Shown: positions 57,863-63,999 of the stretch, piece after piece
How the letters are laid out: each line of letters starts with the position of its first letter
How positions within the stretch are numbered: position 1 is the first letter of the stretch
IMG/VR virus record: IMGVR_UViG_3300017791_000021
Coordinates: 47,016-111,015 of that record
From: a virus
Lineage: Duplodnaviria > Caudoviricetes
Strand: one strand, 5' to 3'
DNA: 64,000 nt
Translations under genes and position numbers: made by a program
Notes under the pieces: generated by a model
Told to the model about the DNA's origin: nothing
Seen by the model: the letters and a program-made list of their open reading frames with translations, nothing else
The model's database searches: none

Positions 57863-58918
57863 TTACTCTGCGCTAGGCTTGATCAGGTCATATACCTTAT
57901 CAGTAATGTCCTTTCCGTCCAACAGGCTGAACATAAAACCGGGATATTCGGTCCACTCATCGCTGGTTGCGAGTCGTGCGAACTCCTTTCGCGTCCAAGA
58001 ATCGGAATCCTTGTCCAGAGCCTTGCAGATCTGACGAAAATCGCTCTTGGCAATCGTATCGATCAGCAGAAAATCCTTTCGGATCTCCTTGAAAGTCTCC
58101 TTAAGCCAGGCGTGCCACTCGTCCGGAACGATCTCACACAGTTCCTGGAGCGTCTGGCCTTCCTTCATGTTCTCCCAGACCCGACGCTTTGTCAAACCCG
58201 TCACGATCTTGTGCAAAGCAATGTAGTCATCCTGCTTGATCTTGATCCGGTAGTTGAGATCCGGGAAGAAGACCACAAGACCTTCCGCGTTGGGGCGCGG
58301 AGGAGCCTCCAGTGCCTCTCTAAGCGTCTCGTAGGGGAAGGTCTGAGCGCGGGGACCACGCCACGTCACAACCTCGTTAGGAAGCAATACGTCGCCTTCC
58401 TCAATGTCACGCACACCCAGCAGAATCAGCTCATCCATATCTCCATAATCCAGCACAATACGGTTGGACGGATAGACAATCTCAAACATATAGGTCCACA
58501 TAGGAGCAACCTTGAAACCATACTTCGTCTTCCACAGCTCTGTAGCGTGGATTGCCTGCTCAGAAGTAAAGGAGCCACGAGTAGCAATTCCCTGCTCACC
58601 CTCATAAGACCAAAGGATACCGAGCGAACCATCCATCTTATCGGTTGCTACTACACGCTGATCCATAAGCATTGCGTCAGCCTGATTCTGACCATAGTTC
58701 AGGAACTTGTCAAAGGGCCGCGCGATAACCGTACCAGCGGAGTTTGCAATCAGACCACGGCACTTGGTAGTGACGTTGTTCCACTCTCCGTCATACTGAG
58801 CCTTTTCCGTGTAGTTGTAGATGATCAGGTCAAGAGTAGGGTGAGTGTTCTCACGCACATAGCCCTGATCGTGCATGTACATGTATTCCCGGTAACCAAA
58901 CAGATCGTAGATGTGCAT
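57863..58918 (-). CDS. rnlA: RNA ligase (T4 Rnl1-like)
   Basis: YNY, CRGLI, ARPFDKFLN, motif I KMDGSLG, TRGSF, FEI, EGLV, KIK. Confidence 0.93.
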   Translation of the reverse strand: MHIYDLFGYREYMYMHDQGYVRENTHPTLDLIIYNYTEKAQYDGEWNNVTTKCRGLIANSAGTVIARPFDKFLNYGQNQADAMLMDQRVVATDKMDGSLGILWSYEGEQGIATRGSFTSEQAIHATELWKTKYGFKVAPMWTYMFEIVYPSNRIVLDYGDMDELILLGVRDIEEGDVLLPNEVVTWRGPRAQTFPYETLREALEAPPRPNAEGLVVFFPDLNYRIKIKQDDYIALHKIVTGLTKRRVWENMKEGQTLQELCEIVPDEWHAWLKETFKEIRKDFLLIDTIAKSDFRQICKALDKDSDSWTRKEFARLATSDEWTEYPGFMFSLLDGKDITDKVYDLIKPSAE

Positions 58919-59007: not shown

Positions 59008-59020
59008 ATTGGGTGGTACG

Positions 59021-59102
59021 TGGATGGAGAGGGACTTGAACCCCCAGACCCGAAAGACCGGTTTTACAGACCGGCACGCTACCAATTACGTTTTATCCAT
59101 CC
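59021..59102 (-). tRNA. tRNA-Tyr(GUA)
   Basis: GGATGGA/TCCATCC acceptor, CCGGT-CTGTAAA-ACCGG, long V-arm, TTCAAGT T-loop. Confidence 0.9.
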
Positions 59103-59104
59103 GG

Positions 59105-59176
59105 GGTGACTGACGGGACTTGAACCCGCATTGGCCACGACCACAACGTGGTGCATTACCGTTATGCTACAGTCAC
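59105..59176 (-). tRNA. tRNA-His(GUG)
   Basis: GTGACTG/CAGTCAC, CCACG-TTGTGGT-CGTGG, C73. Confidence 0.9.
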
Positions 59177-59178
59177 AG

Positions 59179-59250
59179 TCCGGGCGAGAAGAGTCGAACT
59201 TCCGTCTACTCCTTATCAGAGAGTCGTTCTAACCGTTGAACTACGCCCGA
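59179..59250 (-). tRNA. tRNA-Ile(GAU)
   Basis: TCGGGCG/CGCCCGG, ACTCT-CTGATAA-GGAGT, TTCGACT. Confidence 0.85.
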
Positions 59251-59256
59251 TCATAT

Positions 59257-59565
59257 TTACTTGTGTTCGTTAATGATACCAAGGATCTTAAACTTTGGCA
59301 AGGCTCCTACGTTATACTCGACAACCTTACCCTTCTTAAACAATAGAAGAGTTGGAATTGAAGCAATATCGTAGCGCTTAGCTAGTTCGGCTTGCTCATC
59401 TGCATTGATCTTCACTACTTCTAGCCAGTCGTTCTCTTCTGATACAGACTGTAGCACGGGAGCCATCATCTTGCAAGGTCCGCACCAGTCAGCCCAGAAG
59501 TCAACTAGAACTGGCTTCTCAGATTCAAGAACCTCATTGAAGTTCTCAATAGTAATGTCACGCAT
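59257..59565 (-). CDS. trxA: Thioredoxin
   Basis: VLVDFWADWCGPCK, SIPTL; start re-assigned to ATG 59565 behind AGGAG. Confidence 0.95.
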   Translation of the reverse strand: MRDITIENFNEVLESEKPVLVDFWADWCGPCKMMAPVLQSVSEENDWLEVVKINADEQAELAKRYDIASIPTLLLFKKGKVVEYNVGALPKFKILGIINEHK

Positions 59566-59585
59566 ATATTCTCCTAATCGATACG

Positions 59586-59658
59586 TACTCCCAGCGGGAT
59601 TTGAACCCACAACCGCCTGTATATAAGACAGGTGCTCTCACCGTTGAGCTATGGGAGC
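59586..59658 (-). tRNA. tRNA-Ile(UAU)
   Basis: GCTCCCA/TGGGAGT, CCTGT-CTTATAT-ACAGG, TTCAAAT. Confidence 0.85.
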
Positions 59659-59788
59659 AGGTAAGCACCATATTAGCCGTACCAGAGCGTTTGTGCAATC
59701 GATCTCTTCTCTGCACCAGGCTAATACTTTTCCTTCACATCGCAACTCCGATTGCACGGGGAGGGAAGGCAGGCAAGTGCTCTTACCT
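59659..59788 (-). ncRNA. Candidate structured ncRNA (two arms with 9-bp loop-loop complementarity)
   Basis: Closing stem AGGTAA(GA)GCAC/GTGCTTACCT; arms CCTTC/GAAGG and TATTAGCC/GGCTAATA; GTGCAATCG vs CGATTGCAC. Confidence 0.6.
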
Positions 59789-59794
59789 GTGCTG

Positions 59795-59878
59795 CGGAGG
59801 AAGAGGGATTCGAACCCCCACGGCTTTCACACCGTACGGTTTTCAAGACCGTGCCACGCCACCGATGTTAGTTCCTCC
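59795..59878 (-). tRNA. tRNA-Ser(UGA)
   Basis: GGAGGAA/TTCCTCC, ACGGT-CTTGAAA-ACCGT, long V-arm, G73; weak D-stem. Confidence 0.85.
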
Positions 59879-59956
59879 ATTGCGCTGAACCTTAAAGGAG
59901 TTCAGAGAGATATCACCGTACGGACCTTTTGCCGTACAGCCACCTTTTAAGTGCTG

Positions 59957-60040
59957 CGGAAGAGACGGGAATCGAACCCGCTCGGCCTTGAGAGCCTTAC
60001 TACGTTTCCAGCGTAGCCGCTAACCATTTGCTTCTCTTCC
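59957..60040 (-). tRNA. tRNA-Ser(GGA)
   Basis: GGAAGAG/CTCTTCC, CTACG-CTGGAAA-CGTAG, long V-arm, G73. Confidence 0.85.
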
Positions 60041-60045
60041 ATGCG

Positions 60046-60130
60046 CGGAGACAGAGGGATTCGAACCCTCGGAGGTGTTACCCTCACTTGCTTAGCAGGC
60101 AAGCCCAATCGACCGCTCTGGCATGTCTCC
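60046..60130 (-). tRNA. tRNA-Ser(GCU)
   Basis: GGAGACA/TGTCTCC, CTTGC-CTGCTAA-GCAAG, long V-arm, G73. Confidence 0.9.
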
Positions 60131-60134
60131 AAAG

Positions 60135-60213
60135 AGCGATAGGGGAGAATCGAACTCCAAACGCTAACGGTTTTGCAGACCGTTCCCAGACCATCTGAGT
60201 TAACGCCTACCGC
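60135..60213 (-). tRNA. tRNA-Cys(GCA), atypical D-arm
   Basis: GCGGTAG/CTATCGC, ACGGT-CTGCAAA-ACCGT, U73, TTCGATT. Confidence 0.7.
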
Positions 60214-60218
60214 ATGGG

Positions 60219-60296
60219 TGGATCTGCTGGGAATCGAACCCAGGTCCGCTGGTGCTCCGCGTGCGGCTTTCGCCAACGTCGAAACCTTCCAGACCC
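60219..60296 (-). ncRNA. Mini-tmRNA: tRNA-like domain only, no mRNA-like domain
   Basis: GGGTCTG-GAAGGTTTCGA-CGTTGG-[20 nt]-CCAGCG-GAC-CTGGG-TTCGATT-CCCAG-CAGATCC-A; G3:U70 and A73. Confidence 0.8.
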
Positions 60297-60301
60297 ATTA
60301 G

Positions 60302-60385
60302 TTACGCTCTATAAGGTGGTCTAGGACCACTTGGTGGTTTTGGCATGTTAGGCCCCGGAAAGGGCTTTGGTGTTTTTGGTTTCAT
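60302..60385 (-). CDS. 27-aa proline-rich peptide MKPKTPKPFPGPNMPKPPSGPRPPYRA
   Basis: ATG..TAA fills the tRNA-Val / mini-tmRNA spacer; 11 Pro using all four Pro codons; no SD. Confidence 0.55.
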   Translation of the reverse strand: MKPKTPKPFPGPNMPKPPSGPRPPYRA

Positions 60386-60386
60386 G

Positions 60387-60457
60387 TACCCGATGAGGGA
60401 ATCGAACCCCCGCATGTAGTGTGTAAAACTACTGGTCTCCCATTAACCTAATCGGGC
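60387..60457 (-). tRNA. tRNA-Val(UAC)
   Basis: GCCCGAT/ATCGGGT, GTAGT-TTTACAC-ACTAC, TTCGATT. Confidence 0.85.
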
Positions 60458-60480
60458 ATAAGCCCCGAAGGGCCGTTAAG

Positions 60481-60648
60481 CTAAATTCTGTGGTAATCCC
60501 TAACAGTCACATTCTTAATTGTGACAGCATCAGGATCTTTTGTGTCGGTGAGAGTTACAGTGCATTTATCACCATACACTTCTCTGATGACCGCAGGACG
60601 ACCCTTGTAGTGCCCACGATCCATCATGATGTGCTGTCCTACTATCAA
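60481..60648 (-). CDS. 55-aa KOW-motif microprotein (below ORF-track cutoff)
   Basis: TTG behind AGGGAG; MIVGQHIMMDRGHYKGRPAVIREVYGDKCTVTLTDTKDPDAVTIKNVTVRDYHRI. Confidence 0.7.
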   Translation of the reverse strand: MIVGQHIMMDRGHYKGRPAVIREVYGDKCTVTLTDTKDPDAVTIKNVTVRDYHRI

Positions 60649-60667
60649 GGTGTCTCCCTATTATACC

Positions 60668-60838
60668 TTACGCCTTGCGAACCTCAGACTCTCGGAAAGA
60701 ATCCTCATCACCCTTAGAGTGACCAACTCCATCCTCAGTTGCCTTTACAGCAACCAGCTTGCGAGCTGTGTCAGTGAAGGTAACCTTACCAACCCAGCCG
60801 TTTGCAGTCTCAACCTTGTCTCCGCGCTTGAATGCCAC
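60668..60838 (-). CDS. 56-aa SH3/KOW-like microprotein (below ORF-track cutoff)
   Basis: GTG behind AAGGAGG; MAFKRGDKVETANGWVGKVTFTDTARKLVAVKATEDGVGHSKGDEDSFRESEVRKA. Confidence 0.8.
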   Translation of the reverse strand: MAFKRGDKVETANGWVGKVTFTDTARKLVAVKATEDGVGHSKGDEDSFRESEVRKA

Positions 60839-60869
60839 AAGTGCCTCCTTGTTAGGTTTAGTGCTTGCG

Positions 60870-60947
60870 TACCCCAGACAGGATTCGAACCTGCATACTC
60901 CATTACGCTTTTAATGACCGGTTAGAAGCCGGGGGCGATACTGGGGC
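60870..60947 (-). tRNA. D-armless tRNA-Arg(UCU)-like RNA with long variable arm
   Basis: GCCCCAG-TATCGCCC-CCGG-CTTCTAA-CCGG-T-CATTA-AAAGCG-TAATG-GAGTAT-GCAGG-TTCGAAT-CCTGT-CTGGGGT-A. Confidence 0.65.
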
Positions 60948-60973
60948 AAGTCCGCCCGAAGGCGGGTAGTGGG

Positions 60974-61483
60974 TTAGTCCCACCAGTGAGAACTATTGTA
61001 CTTAGAGTCTTCGAAGACGTCAATGTCTTCCCAGTCTCCATCTTCCCAATAGCGGCCGTAGTCTCGTACCGCGCTGTGCAACTTCTGTCTAACCTTAGAG
61101 CGTACAGCTCCGTTTGTCAACTGCTTGAAGTCCTTGCTACTACGGATATTGGGGTAGTACTCAAGGTTGTAGTAGCAGTGCTTATCTACCAGGCGCTCTT
61201 CATTCGTAGCATTTCTAGGATGATTAATGCGCCAAGTAGATGGTGTCTCTTCGGGTATGTCGATTGTGCAGTCTACAGGCACGTACCAACGCTTGTACAG
61301 CTTGCGAACGTACCAGAGCTTGTCTTCCCAGTGCCAACCGTCTTTGGTAGGCACACGGCGGTATACCGGCTCTTCTCCGACCAACTCAGTCTGTAGGACC
61401 ATGTGATCGTGAGATGGATATCGTGACATAGACGGATCATTCTTCAAAACCCAGTATGGACGATCCTTACGAGTACGAGACAT
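60974..61483 (-). CDS. Basic/aromatic hypothetical protein
   Basis: ATG 61483 behind GGGAG; MSRTRKDRPYWV...HDH...C...C...WWD. Confidence 0.75.
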   Translation of the reverse strand: MSRTRKDRPYWVLKNDPSMSRYPSHDHMVLQTELVGEEPVYRRVPTKDGWHWEDKLWYVRKLYKRWYVPVDCTIDIPEETPSTWRINHPRNATNEERLVDKHCYYNLEYYPNIRSSKDFKQLTNGAVRSKVRQKLHSAVRDYGRYWEDGDWEDIDVFEDSKYNSSHWWD

Positions 61484-61504
61484 ATCAACTCCCAAGGTAG
61501 TGCT

Positions 61505-61592
61505 AAAGAAAATGCCAGATATCAGAGACTCTGGCGGATCTCCCGTTCATTGAGACTTTATAGGGTGTGTTTCAGAACGGCTTAGATATCCC
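61505..61592 (-). promoter_or_regulatory. Structured leader with terminator and possible anti-terminator
   Basis: GCCAGA/TCTGGC hairpin + ATTTTCTTT; upstream GGATATC can pair with GATATCT in the terminator arm. Confidence 0.4.
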
Positions 61593-61594
61593 TG

Positions 61595-61667
<73 letters not shown>

Positions 61668-61671
61668 ATAA

Positions 61672-62247
61672 CTAGAAGGCAAGATTTCCTGCGGACTGAA
61701 TATTGATACTATTCGGACCTGAAATCTGAACCTGCTTAGCAAGTTTGTTGTACCCTCTAAGTGTATTCAAATACTTGTATAGCTTGCCAGGAGTTACCAG
61801 GTACGGTGGGTACTCGGTCAACTTAACTCCAGCGTTCTCATAATCCAAGGCTACGAGTTGAGAACAGATCAAATGGTTTGAACTCTCAACGCGCTTTGCT
61901 ACACCAGGATGCTTGATACCTAGACGATACAGCGCGATAGCCAGGTAGTCAAGGAAGCTGTAAGGCGTTCCTTCCTGCGCCAACGCTGACTGAACAATAA
62001 GGTTGCGCTGCTCATCTGTCAAGGGCACATAGCCAGTAGACCAGATGATTGGACGACCATCATATTCAGCCAAGTCAGAAATAAGTGCGCCACCAGGCTC
62101 AGCCTCAACGATCTTACCATCACCTACATAAACGAAGGCGTGTTCGTAATCACGGAAACCATCTCCATTGAAAAACTGACCGACTCGGATTAAGAATCCG
62201 ACTCCGCCCTTAATGGATACTAGACCGAAATCTCCTGGCTGTGGCAT
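61672..62247 (-). CDS. Permuted papain-like NlpC/P60 enzyme (YiiX/YebB-like)
   Basis: QPGD, YEHAFVYVG..KIVEA, GTPYS, LICSQLV, VTPG (His before Cys). Confidence 0.85.
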   Translation of the reverse strand: MPQPGDFGLVSIKGGVGFLIRVGQFFNGDGFRDYEHAFVYVGDGKIVEAEPGGALISDLAEYDGRPIIWSTGYVPLTDEQRNLIVQSALAQEGTPYSFLDYLAIALYRLGIKHPGVAKRVESSNHLICSQLVALDYENAGVKLTEYPPYLVTPGKLYKYLNTLRGYNKLAKQVQISGPNSINIQSAGNLAF

Positions 62248-62343
62248 TATTTCCTCCTAAAAATTATTTCCCTACACGTCGCTAACCATATCCCATATAG
62301 GATATCTCCGACTGCCTACCCTCATCCTACTCCTCGGGAAAAG

Positions 62344-62416
62344 TGATTCCTGTCGGACTCGAACCGACGCGCTTCGGATTAAAAGTCCGCTGCTCTGCCA
62401 ACTGAGCTAAGGAACC
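62344..62416 (-). tRNA. tRNA-Lys(UUU)
   Basis: GGTTCCT/AGGAATC, CGGA-CTTTTAA-TCCG, TTCGAGT. Confidence 0.9.
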
Positions 62417-62421
62417 AAAAG

Positions 62422-62494
62422 TGGATCGCCAGGGACTTGAACCCTGAACCTTCAGATTAAGAGTCTGCTACTCTGCCAATTGAGTTAGCGATCC
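62422..62494 (-). tRNA. tRNA-Lys(CUU)
   Basis: GGATCGC/GCGATCC, CAGA-CTCTTAA-TCTG, TTCAAGT. Confidence 0.9.
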
Positions 62495-62502
62495 ATTAGG
62501 AA

Positions 62503-62573
62503 AGACATGACCTGACCTAGAGATAACAGGTAGTAATTGTAGCCTTTGCGCATCGCGGCTTCATAGCATGTCT
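62503..62573 (-). ncRNA. Candidate small three-way-junction RNA
   Basis: AGACATG/CATGTCT closing stem with AGCC/GGCT and ACCT/AGGT arms; fills tRNA spacer. Confidence 0.4.
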
Positions 62574-62577
62574 AACG

Positions 62578-62648
62578 TGGAGCCACGGGGAGTCGAACCC
62601 CGATTGCGGGTATGCAAAACCCGTGTCCTACCATTGAACGATGGCCCC
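62578..62648 (-). tRNA. tRNA-Ala(UGC)
   Basis: GGGGCCA/TGGCTCC with G3:U70, CGGGT-TTTGCAT-ACCCG. Confidence 0.92.
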
Positions 62649-62808: not shown

Positions 62809-63999
62809 TTATGCCTCCCAAGGCCACTTCTGGCTCTGACCCGCCTCAATGAGAGGGATCATCTGGAAACCCTTGTCAGTCAGTCCACCGAAGGTGTGAC
62901 GCTTCTTAGAACCAGACTGACTCTGACCAACACGGTAACCCTCAAGGTTCCAGGTATACACCGGAGTGCTTACCGGAACGCTTGCAAGAGGATCGCCACC
63001 CCAACCGTTGTACTGCTCATCGGTGATGATGATAACACGGTCATGACCCTTGAAGCTACCCTTTACCGCCGCAGCAGTATCGGTGCCACCCATGTCACGG
63101 AACTTGTCCATCATCGGAAGTAGCGAGTTACCCTTCTTGAAGCTTACAGCCTCGTAAGGCTTACGTCCACCCCAAGAAGAACCGAACTGAATCAAGTCAG
63201 CATTCTCAGCTCGAAGCGCAAGCGCAGAACCGAAGATAGCAGCCTTATCAGCCATAGTCAACTCGGAGTCAGTACGGTGGTGCTGGAACATAGAACCAGA
63301 ACGGTCAACCAGGATCAGAGTACGCCCAGTCAGAGACGGAACGTTACTCAGAGATGCCTCAAGAGCTTCCTCAAGCGCCGCAGCGATCTTCAGGTTACCC
63401 TTGTTGGCCTGGTAAGCCGCAAGGAAACGGAACGGGAACTGCTTGCTCTTAGCAACCTGAGCCGGATCGGACAGCTTAGCAAGAACACGGTTCAGCACAG
63501 TAGCACTGATACCGGCATCCTGGAAGTTACGCAGGTTGCGAAGCAACGCCATGTAACCCATGTTCGGGATAACAGCCTCCCACGCAGCCTTGTCCATCGG
63601 ACCCTGAAGCCATCCGGACAGAGCTTCCCACGTCATGCCAGCACGAGACAGAGTTTGCATACCAGCCTGAGTACCAATGAGAGCCTTACGCTTCTCAACA
63701 GGAGCAGACATCAGGTTAGCACGAGTGCTAATCATGTCAAGCTCGTAGTTGTGATCAAGAATGGTGTCGTTGCCGTAGCGACGATCAAGCGCATACTTGA
63801 ACAGAGCGTTCTGCTGTGCATTCTCAGCCTTGGCGTGAGAAAGCTGAAGAACGTCAGCGAAACGGTATCCCTTGGAATCCGTGTCGTACTTAAGCCAAGA
63901 GTACTCGTTGTAGAGACGCTTTGCGCCATCTGCAACACCCTTCTTAAGGTACGCAGGGAAGTTCTTGCCGTACTTGCTCTCGTAGTAAGCCAGCACCTC
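62809..63999 (-). CDS. rsr: Ro60 / TROVE-domain RNA-binding protein, N-terminus beyond the window edge
   Basis: TWEALS, MGYMALLRNLRNF, QFPFRFLAAY; vWA MIDAS LVDRSGSM, GGTD, IITDEQ; frame open to the edge. Confidence 0.95.
   Translation of the reverse strand, partial: EVLAYYESKYGKNFPAYLKKGVADGAKRLYNEYSWLKYDTDSKGYRFADVLQLSHAKAENAQQNALFKYALDRRYGNDTILDHNYELDMISTRANLMSAPVEKRKALIGTQAGMQTLSRAGMTWEALSGWLQGPMDKAAWEAVIPNMGYMALLRNLRNFQDAGISATVLNRVLAKLSDPAQVAKSKQFPFRFLAAYQANKGNLKIAAALEEALEASLSNVPSLTGRTLILVDRSGSMFQHHRTDSELTMADKAAIFGSALALRAENADLIQFGSSWGGRKPYEAVSFKKGNSLLPMMDKFRDMGGTDTAAAVKGSFKGHDRVIIITDEQYNGWGGDPLASVPVSTPVYTWNLEGYRVGQSQSGSKKRHTFGGLTDKGFQMIPLIEAGQSQKWPWEA

Follow-up and report, generated by a model that had tools for sequence, protein, structure and literature searches.

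A tRNA array on the minus strand of a phage genome carries a short, proline-rich open reading frame (ORF) in the slot between a tRNA-Val gene and a tmRNA reduced to its tRNA-like domain (TLD), which raises the questions of whether this ORF is a gene, by which route it could be expressed, and what its product might do. The stretch analysed here, called the window (64,000 nucleotides), makes up the right-hand end (64 kb) of a virus record of 111,015 bp that has direct terminal repeats. The phages nearest to the region are pSt2308, GiJojo, LuckySocke, Alone3 and BRock (112–116 kb each), and all 53 matching phage records are Streptomyces phages, in agreement with the actinobacterial setting assumed in an earlier sequence-only reading. 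The array (59020–62648) comprises 11 ARAGORN calls and 13 Rfam matches, with small protein genes interspersed, and is flanked by genes for a TROVE/Ro-like (E 3e-17) plus VWA protein and a T4 Rnl1-type RNA ligase (PF09511, E 8e-11). Part of the stretch is contained in 20 of the 23 listed sequencing runs. The features needed below are, all on the minus strand:

60302..60385 (–), putative micropeptide gene, 27 codons, ATG to TAA (translation, six same-slot homologues, omega 0.14)
60386..60457 (–), tRNA-Val(UAC) including C74 (ARAGORN; Rfam, 64 bits)
60297..60301 (–), stop-to-TLD spacer of 5 nt, ending just before G1 of the TLD-only tmRNA (coordinates)
60216..60296 (–), TLD-only (CDS-less) tmRNA, 81 nt (Rfam RF00023, 60.4 bits vs. 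a gathering score of 47)
60316..60330 (–), predicted hairpin of 6 bp inside ORF codons S19–P24 (fold prediction)
60462..60473 (–), tetraloop hairpin with a 4-bp stem, 4 nt upstream of tRNA-Val (alignment)
60995..61023 (–), weak sigma-70-like promoter match (consensus scan only, 10 of 12 positions; 1 found vs. 1.5 expected in shuffles)
62809–63996, 57863–58918, 61672–62247 and 60481–60838 (–), flanking and interspersed protein genes (Pfam)

The body of the tRNA-Val runs from 60457 to 60387 with the discriminator A at 60387 (Rfam), and C74 at 60386 (ARAGORN) abuts the ATG of the ORF (60385–60383); the TAA stop occupies 60304–60302. The geometry described in the sequence-only reading, with the ATG 1 nt past the discriminator and the stop 5 nt before an 81-nt TLD-only tmRNA, thus proved correct in all details. 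The TLD match spans the whole RF00023 model (positions 1–374) with 304 central positions deleted; a G3:U70 acceptor stem, a T arm and a short P2 helix are present, and the mRNA-like domain is absent.

Translation of 60385..60302 yields the 27-residue product MKPKTPKPFPGPNMPKPPSGPRPPYRA, in which 11 residues are Pro (41%), four are Lys, two are Arg and none is acidic; the net charge of +6 upholds the earlier description as proline-rich and basic. Since no other six-frame ORF (1702 in all of ≥20 aa across the 111,015 bp of the genome) is as rich in Pro, and since stop-free stretches of 27 residues with at least 11 Pro occur at only five places genome-wide, the ORF is no chance product of composition. 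Searches with the peptide gave no significant match in Pfam (best E 0.31), no match in PHROGs, none among PDB sequences at E ≤10 and no usable match in the ESM Atlas; an independent gene call is likewise absent, because none of 1.84 billion representative proteins matched at E ≤0.001. In the GenBank records of pSt2308 and GiJojo, the interval from the tRNA-Val to the next feature is blank.

Relatives were gathered with the TLD and the tRNA-Val as anchors. A 16-base TLD pattern retrieved 62 viral stretches and occurred 68 times in loci, 33 times with a T-arm nearby; upstream of these 33 TLD-like loci, members of the ORF family were present in five (the window's own record, L016, L050, pSt2308 and GiJojo). 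Of at least 121 occurrences of a tRNA-Val 3'-end pattern read in metagenomes, one further homologue (L118) emerged among the matches listed, and a back-translated core pattern found L016, L050 and the new L191 in viral contigs. Six homologues in the same slot were thus available, namely L016, L118, L191, pSt2308 (L001), GiJojo (L002) and L050, which stem from related ~110–115 kb Streptomyces phages and soil contigs. The seven peptides (26–35 aa) form group A (window, L016, L118, L191) and group B (pSt2308, GiJojo, L050). A family profile scored the known loci at 41.6–57.1 bits and nothing else above 12.5 bits in 1.25 Mb of loci. Further searches were less productive: a tblastn search of 50,697 phage records with the peptide as query returned no match, the likely cause being the low-complexity filter, because pSt2308 and GiJojo do carry homologues; a search for related loci with the peptide alignment picked 30 stretches by pattern and none above the tblastn threshold; two close-relative DNA patterns re-found L050 and L016 only; and blastn with the pSt2308 ORF matched only pSt2308 and GiJojo. 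Pro-rich frames upstream of the TLDs in L015, L040, L041, L046, L061 and L067 were discarded as products of GC-rich composition and of the position at which the upstream segment had been cut; the family profile did not match them. A soil contig from run X2 represents a further variant, the four listed changes of which can be read as two synonymous changes and M14N.

The ORF was not found in the genomes of LuckySocke, Alone3 and BRock, all searched whole (0 of 3), and the gene is therefore dispensable. Where it occurs, its codons argue for selection on the peptide. For a data set that is small (seven sequences of 26–35 codons in two groups, with the between-group alignment made on protein), the GY codon model over 22 shared codons gave an omega of 0.14 (2ΔlnL 35.5, p 2.6e-9 vs. 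omega = 1). Within groups, where alignments are unambiguous, omega was 0.15 for group A (four sequences, 24 codons; p 1e-5) and 0.14 for group B (three sequences, 25 codons; p 5e-5), Nei-Gojobori dN/dS ranged from 0.05 to 0.32, and variable sites were distributed over codon positions 1/2/3 as 1/5/15 and 4/6/14. Third positions take 15 of the 20 differences in two independent closest pairs (p 1.7e-4). Each of the eight invariant Pro columns uses two to four different codons, indels are whole codons, and stop codons vary among TAA, TAG and TGA. Rfam scanning of the ORF stretch returned no family even at E ≤10, and no structure common to both groups was found (fold z-scores –1.3, –2.7, +0.4 and –1.6). 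Judged by these codon patterns, the ORF is a protein-coding micropeptide gene under purifying selection in seven loci. Lack of conservation, which the sequence-only reading had named as a reason to abandon the idea of a gene, was not observed, as the ORF is kept in all slot-sharing loci that carry it (7/7).

In an alignment of six sequences, M1, K2, P3, P6, P8, P10, P12, P15, K16, P18, G20 and P21 are invariant and position 9 is F or Y; on addition of L191, K2 alone loses invariance. The family pattern can be written K-P-x-x-P-[KR]-P-(A)-[FY]-P-x-P-x-x-P-K-x-P-[ST]-G-P. The C-terminus is the least conserved part, the seven peptides ending in YRA, YRT, YRI, PPY, PGR, PGR and DED. At the 3' end of group A, selection on the protein is overlaid by an RNA-level constraint, as the following observations suggest. 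The SGPRPPYR codons, the last eight shared in this group, are nucleotide-identical in three of four sequences (window, L016, L118), and in L191 the final Arg is missing and two synonymous changes occur, one within the loop of the hairpin and one affecting the Tyr codon. The stem bases of the hairpin within the ORF are identical in all four group-A sequences, a third position in its loop varies, and no counterpart was predicted in pSt2308, the sole group-B sequence folded.

As to the route of expression, the start codon follows directly on GGTAC in all seven loci. This invariant pentanucleotide is the acceptor end of the tRNA-Val with discriminator A73 and C74, so that there is no room for a Shine-Dalgarno sequence. 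The start is GTG in six loci and ATG in one, never TTG or CTG, as is characteristic of actinobacterial leaderless genes: leaderless initiation in mycobacteria needs a 5'-terminal ATG or GTG and nothing further, and does not work with TTG or CTG (PMC4633059), and 264 mRNAs with leaders of <10 nt have been reported for S. coelicolor (PMC4681348). All 28 tRNA genes called by ARAGORN (window 59020–62648, genome 1260–5713) have a C after the discriminator and just two (Gly, Pro) encode the full CCA, suggesting that position 74 is kept by host 3' processing. The 3' cut in S. coelicolor falls, for most tRNAs that encode CCA, between the first and second C (PMC4681348), an observation that concerns CCA-encoding tRNAs, the phage tRNAs considered here being mostly CCA-less. 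On the strength of the C in 28/28 tRNAs, this cut site and the mycobacterial ATG/GTG rule, the ORF probably owes its expression to a leaderless message that tRNA 3' processing sets free. The idea of a near-leaderless message, put forward in the sequence-only reading, gains from this, as the lone base before the start is C74 and a cut there would leave AUG or GUG 5'-terminal.

The array would be transcribed as a precursor, the host tRNA 3'-trimming enzyme would cut after C74 of the tRNA-Val and so place AUG or GUG at the exact 5' end, and the 3' end would be produced by RNase P cleavage where the downstream TLD begins, at G1. The released mRNA of roughly 90 nt, devoid of a Shine-Dalgarno sequence, would then be translated by actinobacterial ribosomes as a leaderless message. 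The predicted distance from the stop to this 3' end is 4–8 nt in five of the seven loci, rising to 42 and 74 nt in GiJojo and L050 (the spacers of the six relatives measure 4, 6, 6, 8, 42 and 74 nt). Other small genes of the array leave a gap of 22–28 nt after tRNAs, according to the GiJojo annotation. The weak promoter match at 60995..61023 could start a transcript running through tRNA-Val, ORF and TLD. A promoter inside the tRNA-Val, giving a primary leaderless transcript, was considered and rejected: inspection revealed no suitably spaced TANNNT-type –10 element, and the promoter scan, too, gave no match at this place. The tetraloop hairpin before the tRNA-Val is kept in 7/7 loci, with changes in both stem arms in L118 and L191.

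A second candidate for an RNA-abutting leaderless gene occurs in GiJojo, where a GTG at 1583 that immediately follows the TLD's A-C is the start of an in-frame KOW-like ORF of 53 aa; the annotated gp44 (1502–1744) begins at an ATG inside the TLD-only tmRNA. This suggests that the route may be used more than once. TTG codons directly after three other tRNAs (Asn, Leu-tag, Asp) were dropped, as the frames they open look random or continue into sequence resembling a tRNA. With known actinobacterial leaderless mRNAs, the phage ORF shares the lack of space for a Shine-Dalgarno sequence and the restriction to ATG/GTG (PMC4633059; PMC4681348); it differs in that their 5' end is a transcription start site bearing a triphosphate, whereas a processing-made monophosphate end is expected here. 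Our literature search found no description of processing-made leaderless mRNAs in phage or bacterial tRNA arrays. In mitochondria, mRNA ends are set by excision of the flanking tRNAs (tRNA punctuation), and by analogy both ends of the ORF mRNA would come from excised tRNA-shaped flanks. If the route holds, it would be a bacterial or phage counterpart of mitochondrial tRNA punctuation, invisible to annotation based on start sites.

We therefore favor, with a probability of roughly 60%, the reading that the ORF is a selected micropeptide gene of a clade of ~110–115 kb Streptomyces phages, that it is translated from a tRNA-processed leaderless mRNA, and that the peptide lies in a groove of a host machine. 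A conserved, selected gene would thereby be added to phage genomes whose annotations skip it. The last part of this reading starts from the peptide itself, which is too short and too Pro-rich to fold into a globular domain and must consequently act as an extended ligand; most likely it would occupy a narrow binding groove of a host machine, this being the least certain step. The best-guess targets are the ribosome (exit tunnel or mRNA channel) or DnaK, a lead provided by composition and neighbourhood, that is, by agreement with the sequence criteria for proline-rich antimicrobial peptides (PrAMPs) and by the surrounding translation and RNA-repair genes.

The criteria of Welch et al., quoted in PMC11678341, ask of a PrAMP at least 25% Pro, a net charge of at least +1, antimicrobial activity and an intracellular target in the 70S ribosome and/or DnaK; as to the two sequence criteria, the phage peptides have 29–42% Pro and charges of +1 to +6 in 7/7 cases. 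P[KR]P occurs two to three times in every peptide and PRP in six of the seven. Insect and crustacean PrAMPs are cationic peptides of 15–40 aa with 25–49% Pro, the type I insect peptides (oncocin/pyrrhocoricin-like) having a core with the PRP motif, YLPRP (PMC11678341). The exact YLPRP core is found in none of the seven phage peptides, and Y-P-[RK]-P in three. The S-Y-P-R-P-A-F-P-K-P of pSt2308 and GiJojo comes close to the Y-P-R-P-F-P-R-P of a crab peptide and to the Y-L-P-R-P core of oncocin (PMC11678341). Type II (apidaecin-like) PrAMPs carry the C-terminal pharmacophore PRPPHPRL with a penultimate Arg and a terminal Leu (PMC11549390); it is present in 0/7, three peptides ending in PRPPYR plus A, T or I, one residue shorter, and the other four in PPY, PGR, PGR or DED. 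Like PrAMPs, the phage peptides are short, Pro-rich and cationic, contain repeated P-[RK]-P and place an aromatic residue ahead of P-R-P; unlike PrAMPs, they would be made by the phage inside the bacterium rather than by an animal; the likeness is compositional, at the level of motifs, and implies no homology. Apidaecin genes are active when expressed inside bacteria (PMC11549390).

Two more specific arguments of the sequence-only reading do not extend to the family. It had pointed to PP motifs as stalling ribosomes and to an apidaecin-like ending GPRPPYRA; the PP counts per peptide are 2, 2, 2, 2, 0, 0 and 1, with zero in pSt2308 and GiJojo and no PPX at a conserved site, as an EF-P-dependent polyproline arrest sequence would have, and the endings differ. 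As PP is missing from 2/7 peptides and the C-terminus is the least conserved part, both arguments fail for the family.

A bolder version of the preferred reading makes the peptide the phage's own intracellular analogue of an animal PrAMP, produced from the ~90-nt leaderless mRNA that host tRNA-processing enzymes would cut from the tRNA array; the peptide would lodge in the host ribosome (exit tunnel or empty mRNA channel) and, jointly with the tag-less tmRNA beside it, reset termination and ribosome rescue in infected cells. We consider this unlikely. Were the ribosome the target of the peptide, the class of proline-rich ribosome-binding peptides would gain its first virus-encoded member and, with it, a natural scaffold active on actinobacterial ribosomes; the peptide is short enough for synthesis. 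A further point of reference is Stp of phage T4, a 26-residue peptide involved in the conflict between anticodon nuclease and RNA ligase. Both are very small phage peptides, with a host-directed role in the case of Stp, and the window has a T4 Rnl1-type RNA ligase beside the array; composition and gene context differ, and we claim no likeness in sequence.

The second functional lead is a connection to ribosome rescue without a tag. The alternative built on it holds that the peptide and the TLD-only tmRNA cooperate, the peptide being either an Arf-like adaptor or channel binder or a second inhibitor of tmRNA-SmpB; as an adaptor, it would let ribosomes holding peptidyl-Ala-TLD go without a tag. 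Alternative rescue factors are known to be built as small basic peptides entering the empty mRNA channel, and ribosome release cannot rely on a stop codon within a CDS-less TLD, which contains none. A TLD-like element lies directly downstream of the ORF in all seven loci by alignment; an Rfam tmRNA match above threshold was obtained in five, with none at the gathering score for L118 and none at E ≤0.01 for L191. A precedent for the RNA component exists in mycobacteriophage DS6A, which carries a TLD-only tmRNA; a similar molecule strongly inhibits tmRNA in E. coli, perhaps by titrating SmpB (PMC4131195, PMC11915505). The two phage RNAs are alike in being phage-borne, in having little beyond the tRNA-like domain and in lacking a tag reading frame; they differ in that the TLD described here lies in the tRNA array of a Streptomyces phage, and in that no upstream ORF is mentioned in the passages on DS6A in these sources (PMC4131195, PMC11915505). 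A complex prediction for the L118 peptide (five-row alignment) with SmpB of S. coelicolor (score 0.00, mark 0.32) was uninformative on binding.

Against an obligate partnership stands the frequency with which TLDs occur by themselves. The window's TLD is 100% identical over 80–82 nt to those of GiJojo and LuckySocke, and LuckySocke, in which the identity extends over 80 nt, has the ORF nowhere in its genome. No such ORF is found upstream in 28 of the 33 TLD-like loci examined, and the family profile detected none elsewhere in the 1.25 Mb. TLD-only tmRNAs are widespread, with an 81–83-nt full-model match in 10 of 12 further, more distant viral loci tested (L008, L014, L017, L023, L024, L026, L028, L035, L041 and L045), where the TLD stands alone. 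In one soil contig, the tRNA-Val is joined directly to the TLD and the ORF is absent, and GiJojo combines a TLD of the window type with a group-B ORF. From LuckySocke, the fusion contig and the GiJojo combination it follows that the parts of the tRNA array are shuffled modules; the ORF is an accessory module, neither the template of the TLD nor an obligate partner of the mini-tmRNA, and its adjacency could merely reflect the shared array. The combined check of co-occurrence and dN/dS proposed in the sequence-only reading was borne out for selection and for the presence of a TLD-like element beside 7/7 ORFs, and failed for the converse, as most of the TLD-like loci examined lack the ORF. We rate cooperation in ribosome rescue as rather improbable.

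Equally improbable in our estimate is a regulatory ORF acting in cis, the translation of which, or an arrest of the nascent chain, would govern processing, folding or stability of the tRNA-Val and TLD while the free peptide has no function. A ribosome terminating 4–8 nt before G1, as in five of seven loci, would cover the start of the TLD; arrest peptides, too, are conserved in their amino acids, and group A has two PP motifs. The long spacers in GiJojo and L050 do not fit such a role, nor does the absence of PP from two peptides; moreover, conservation extends along the full length of the peptide instead of being concentrated in the C-terminal 8–10 residues near the peptidyl-transferase centre, where the family varies most.

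Much less support is left for the view that the slot holds no gene at all, but a spacer, a decayed tRNA or an RNA element (such as hairpins or terminators on the plus strand) with one frame open by chance. In its favour, a tRNA would roughly fill the slot, two terminator-like sites are found on the plus strand at 60314–60332 and 60350–60367, and the hairpin stem of group A is free of synonymous changes. The number of terminator-like sites in the region (3 found vs. 1.4 expected) is within the spread of shuffled sequences, and the low omega, the excess of third-position changes in both groups, the kept frame and start, the whole-codon indels and the lack of an Rfam match or of a structure common to both groups all speak against it, making this view very improbable. 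Scarcely credible is the proposal of the sequence-only reading that the ORF is the detached mRNA-like template of the mini-tmRNA, to be read by trans-translation after entry of the TLD, since only its position beside a tmRNA without a tag reading frame speaks for it, whereas it lies 5' of a complete, intact TLD and not between TLD halves, retains in 7/7 an ATG or GTG that would be superfluous for a resume codon, has variable and mostly non-hydrophobic ends where a tmRNA tag ends hydrophobically (PMC4131195), would be parted from the TLD by RNase P, and is missing beside the identical TLD of LuckySocke and in most of the TLD-like loci examined.

Several minor observations concern the array and its RNAs. 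ARAGORN called a 626-nt permuted tmRNA with the tag AARQVLAEL in BRock (L004, 1490–2115), which spans the TLD plus several tRNAs and looks false. In L014, L048, L054 and L056, the bases just upstream of the TLD resemble the 3' end of another TLD or of a tRNA. In LuckySocke (L003, 1368–1494), and also in Alone3 and L031, the slot of the ORF is taken by a tRNA-like gene whose anticodon region carries a 62-nt insert (LuckySocke: Rfam tRNA, 36.9 bits); it could be Y-RNA-like or an intron-bearing tRNA, and a TROVE/Ro-like gene is present in these phages. Protein genes within the array include a weak permuted-papain-like match and two small KOW/Tudor-like ones, both under the Pfam cut-offs. Four sequencing runs, all in the form of contigs, were compared with the stretch; X14, the one RNA run among them, gave a single contig that covers 60487–60800 only, outside the ORF. 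A tRNA-shaped gene with a GCA anticodon loop at 60135–60207 (–) of the window was missed by ARAGORN and scored 35.6 bits, below threshold, with the Rfam tRNA-Sec model; at the matching place in L118, ARAGORN calls a tRNA-Cys(gca).
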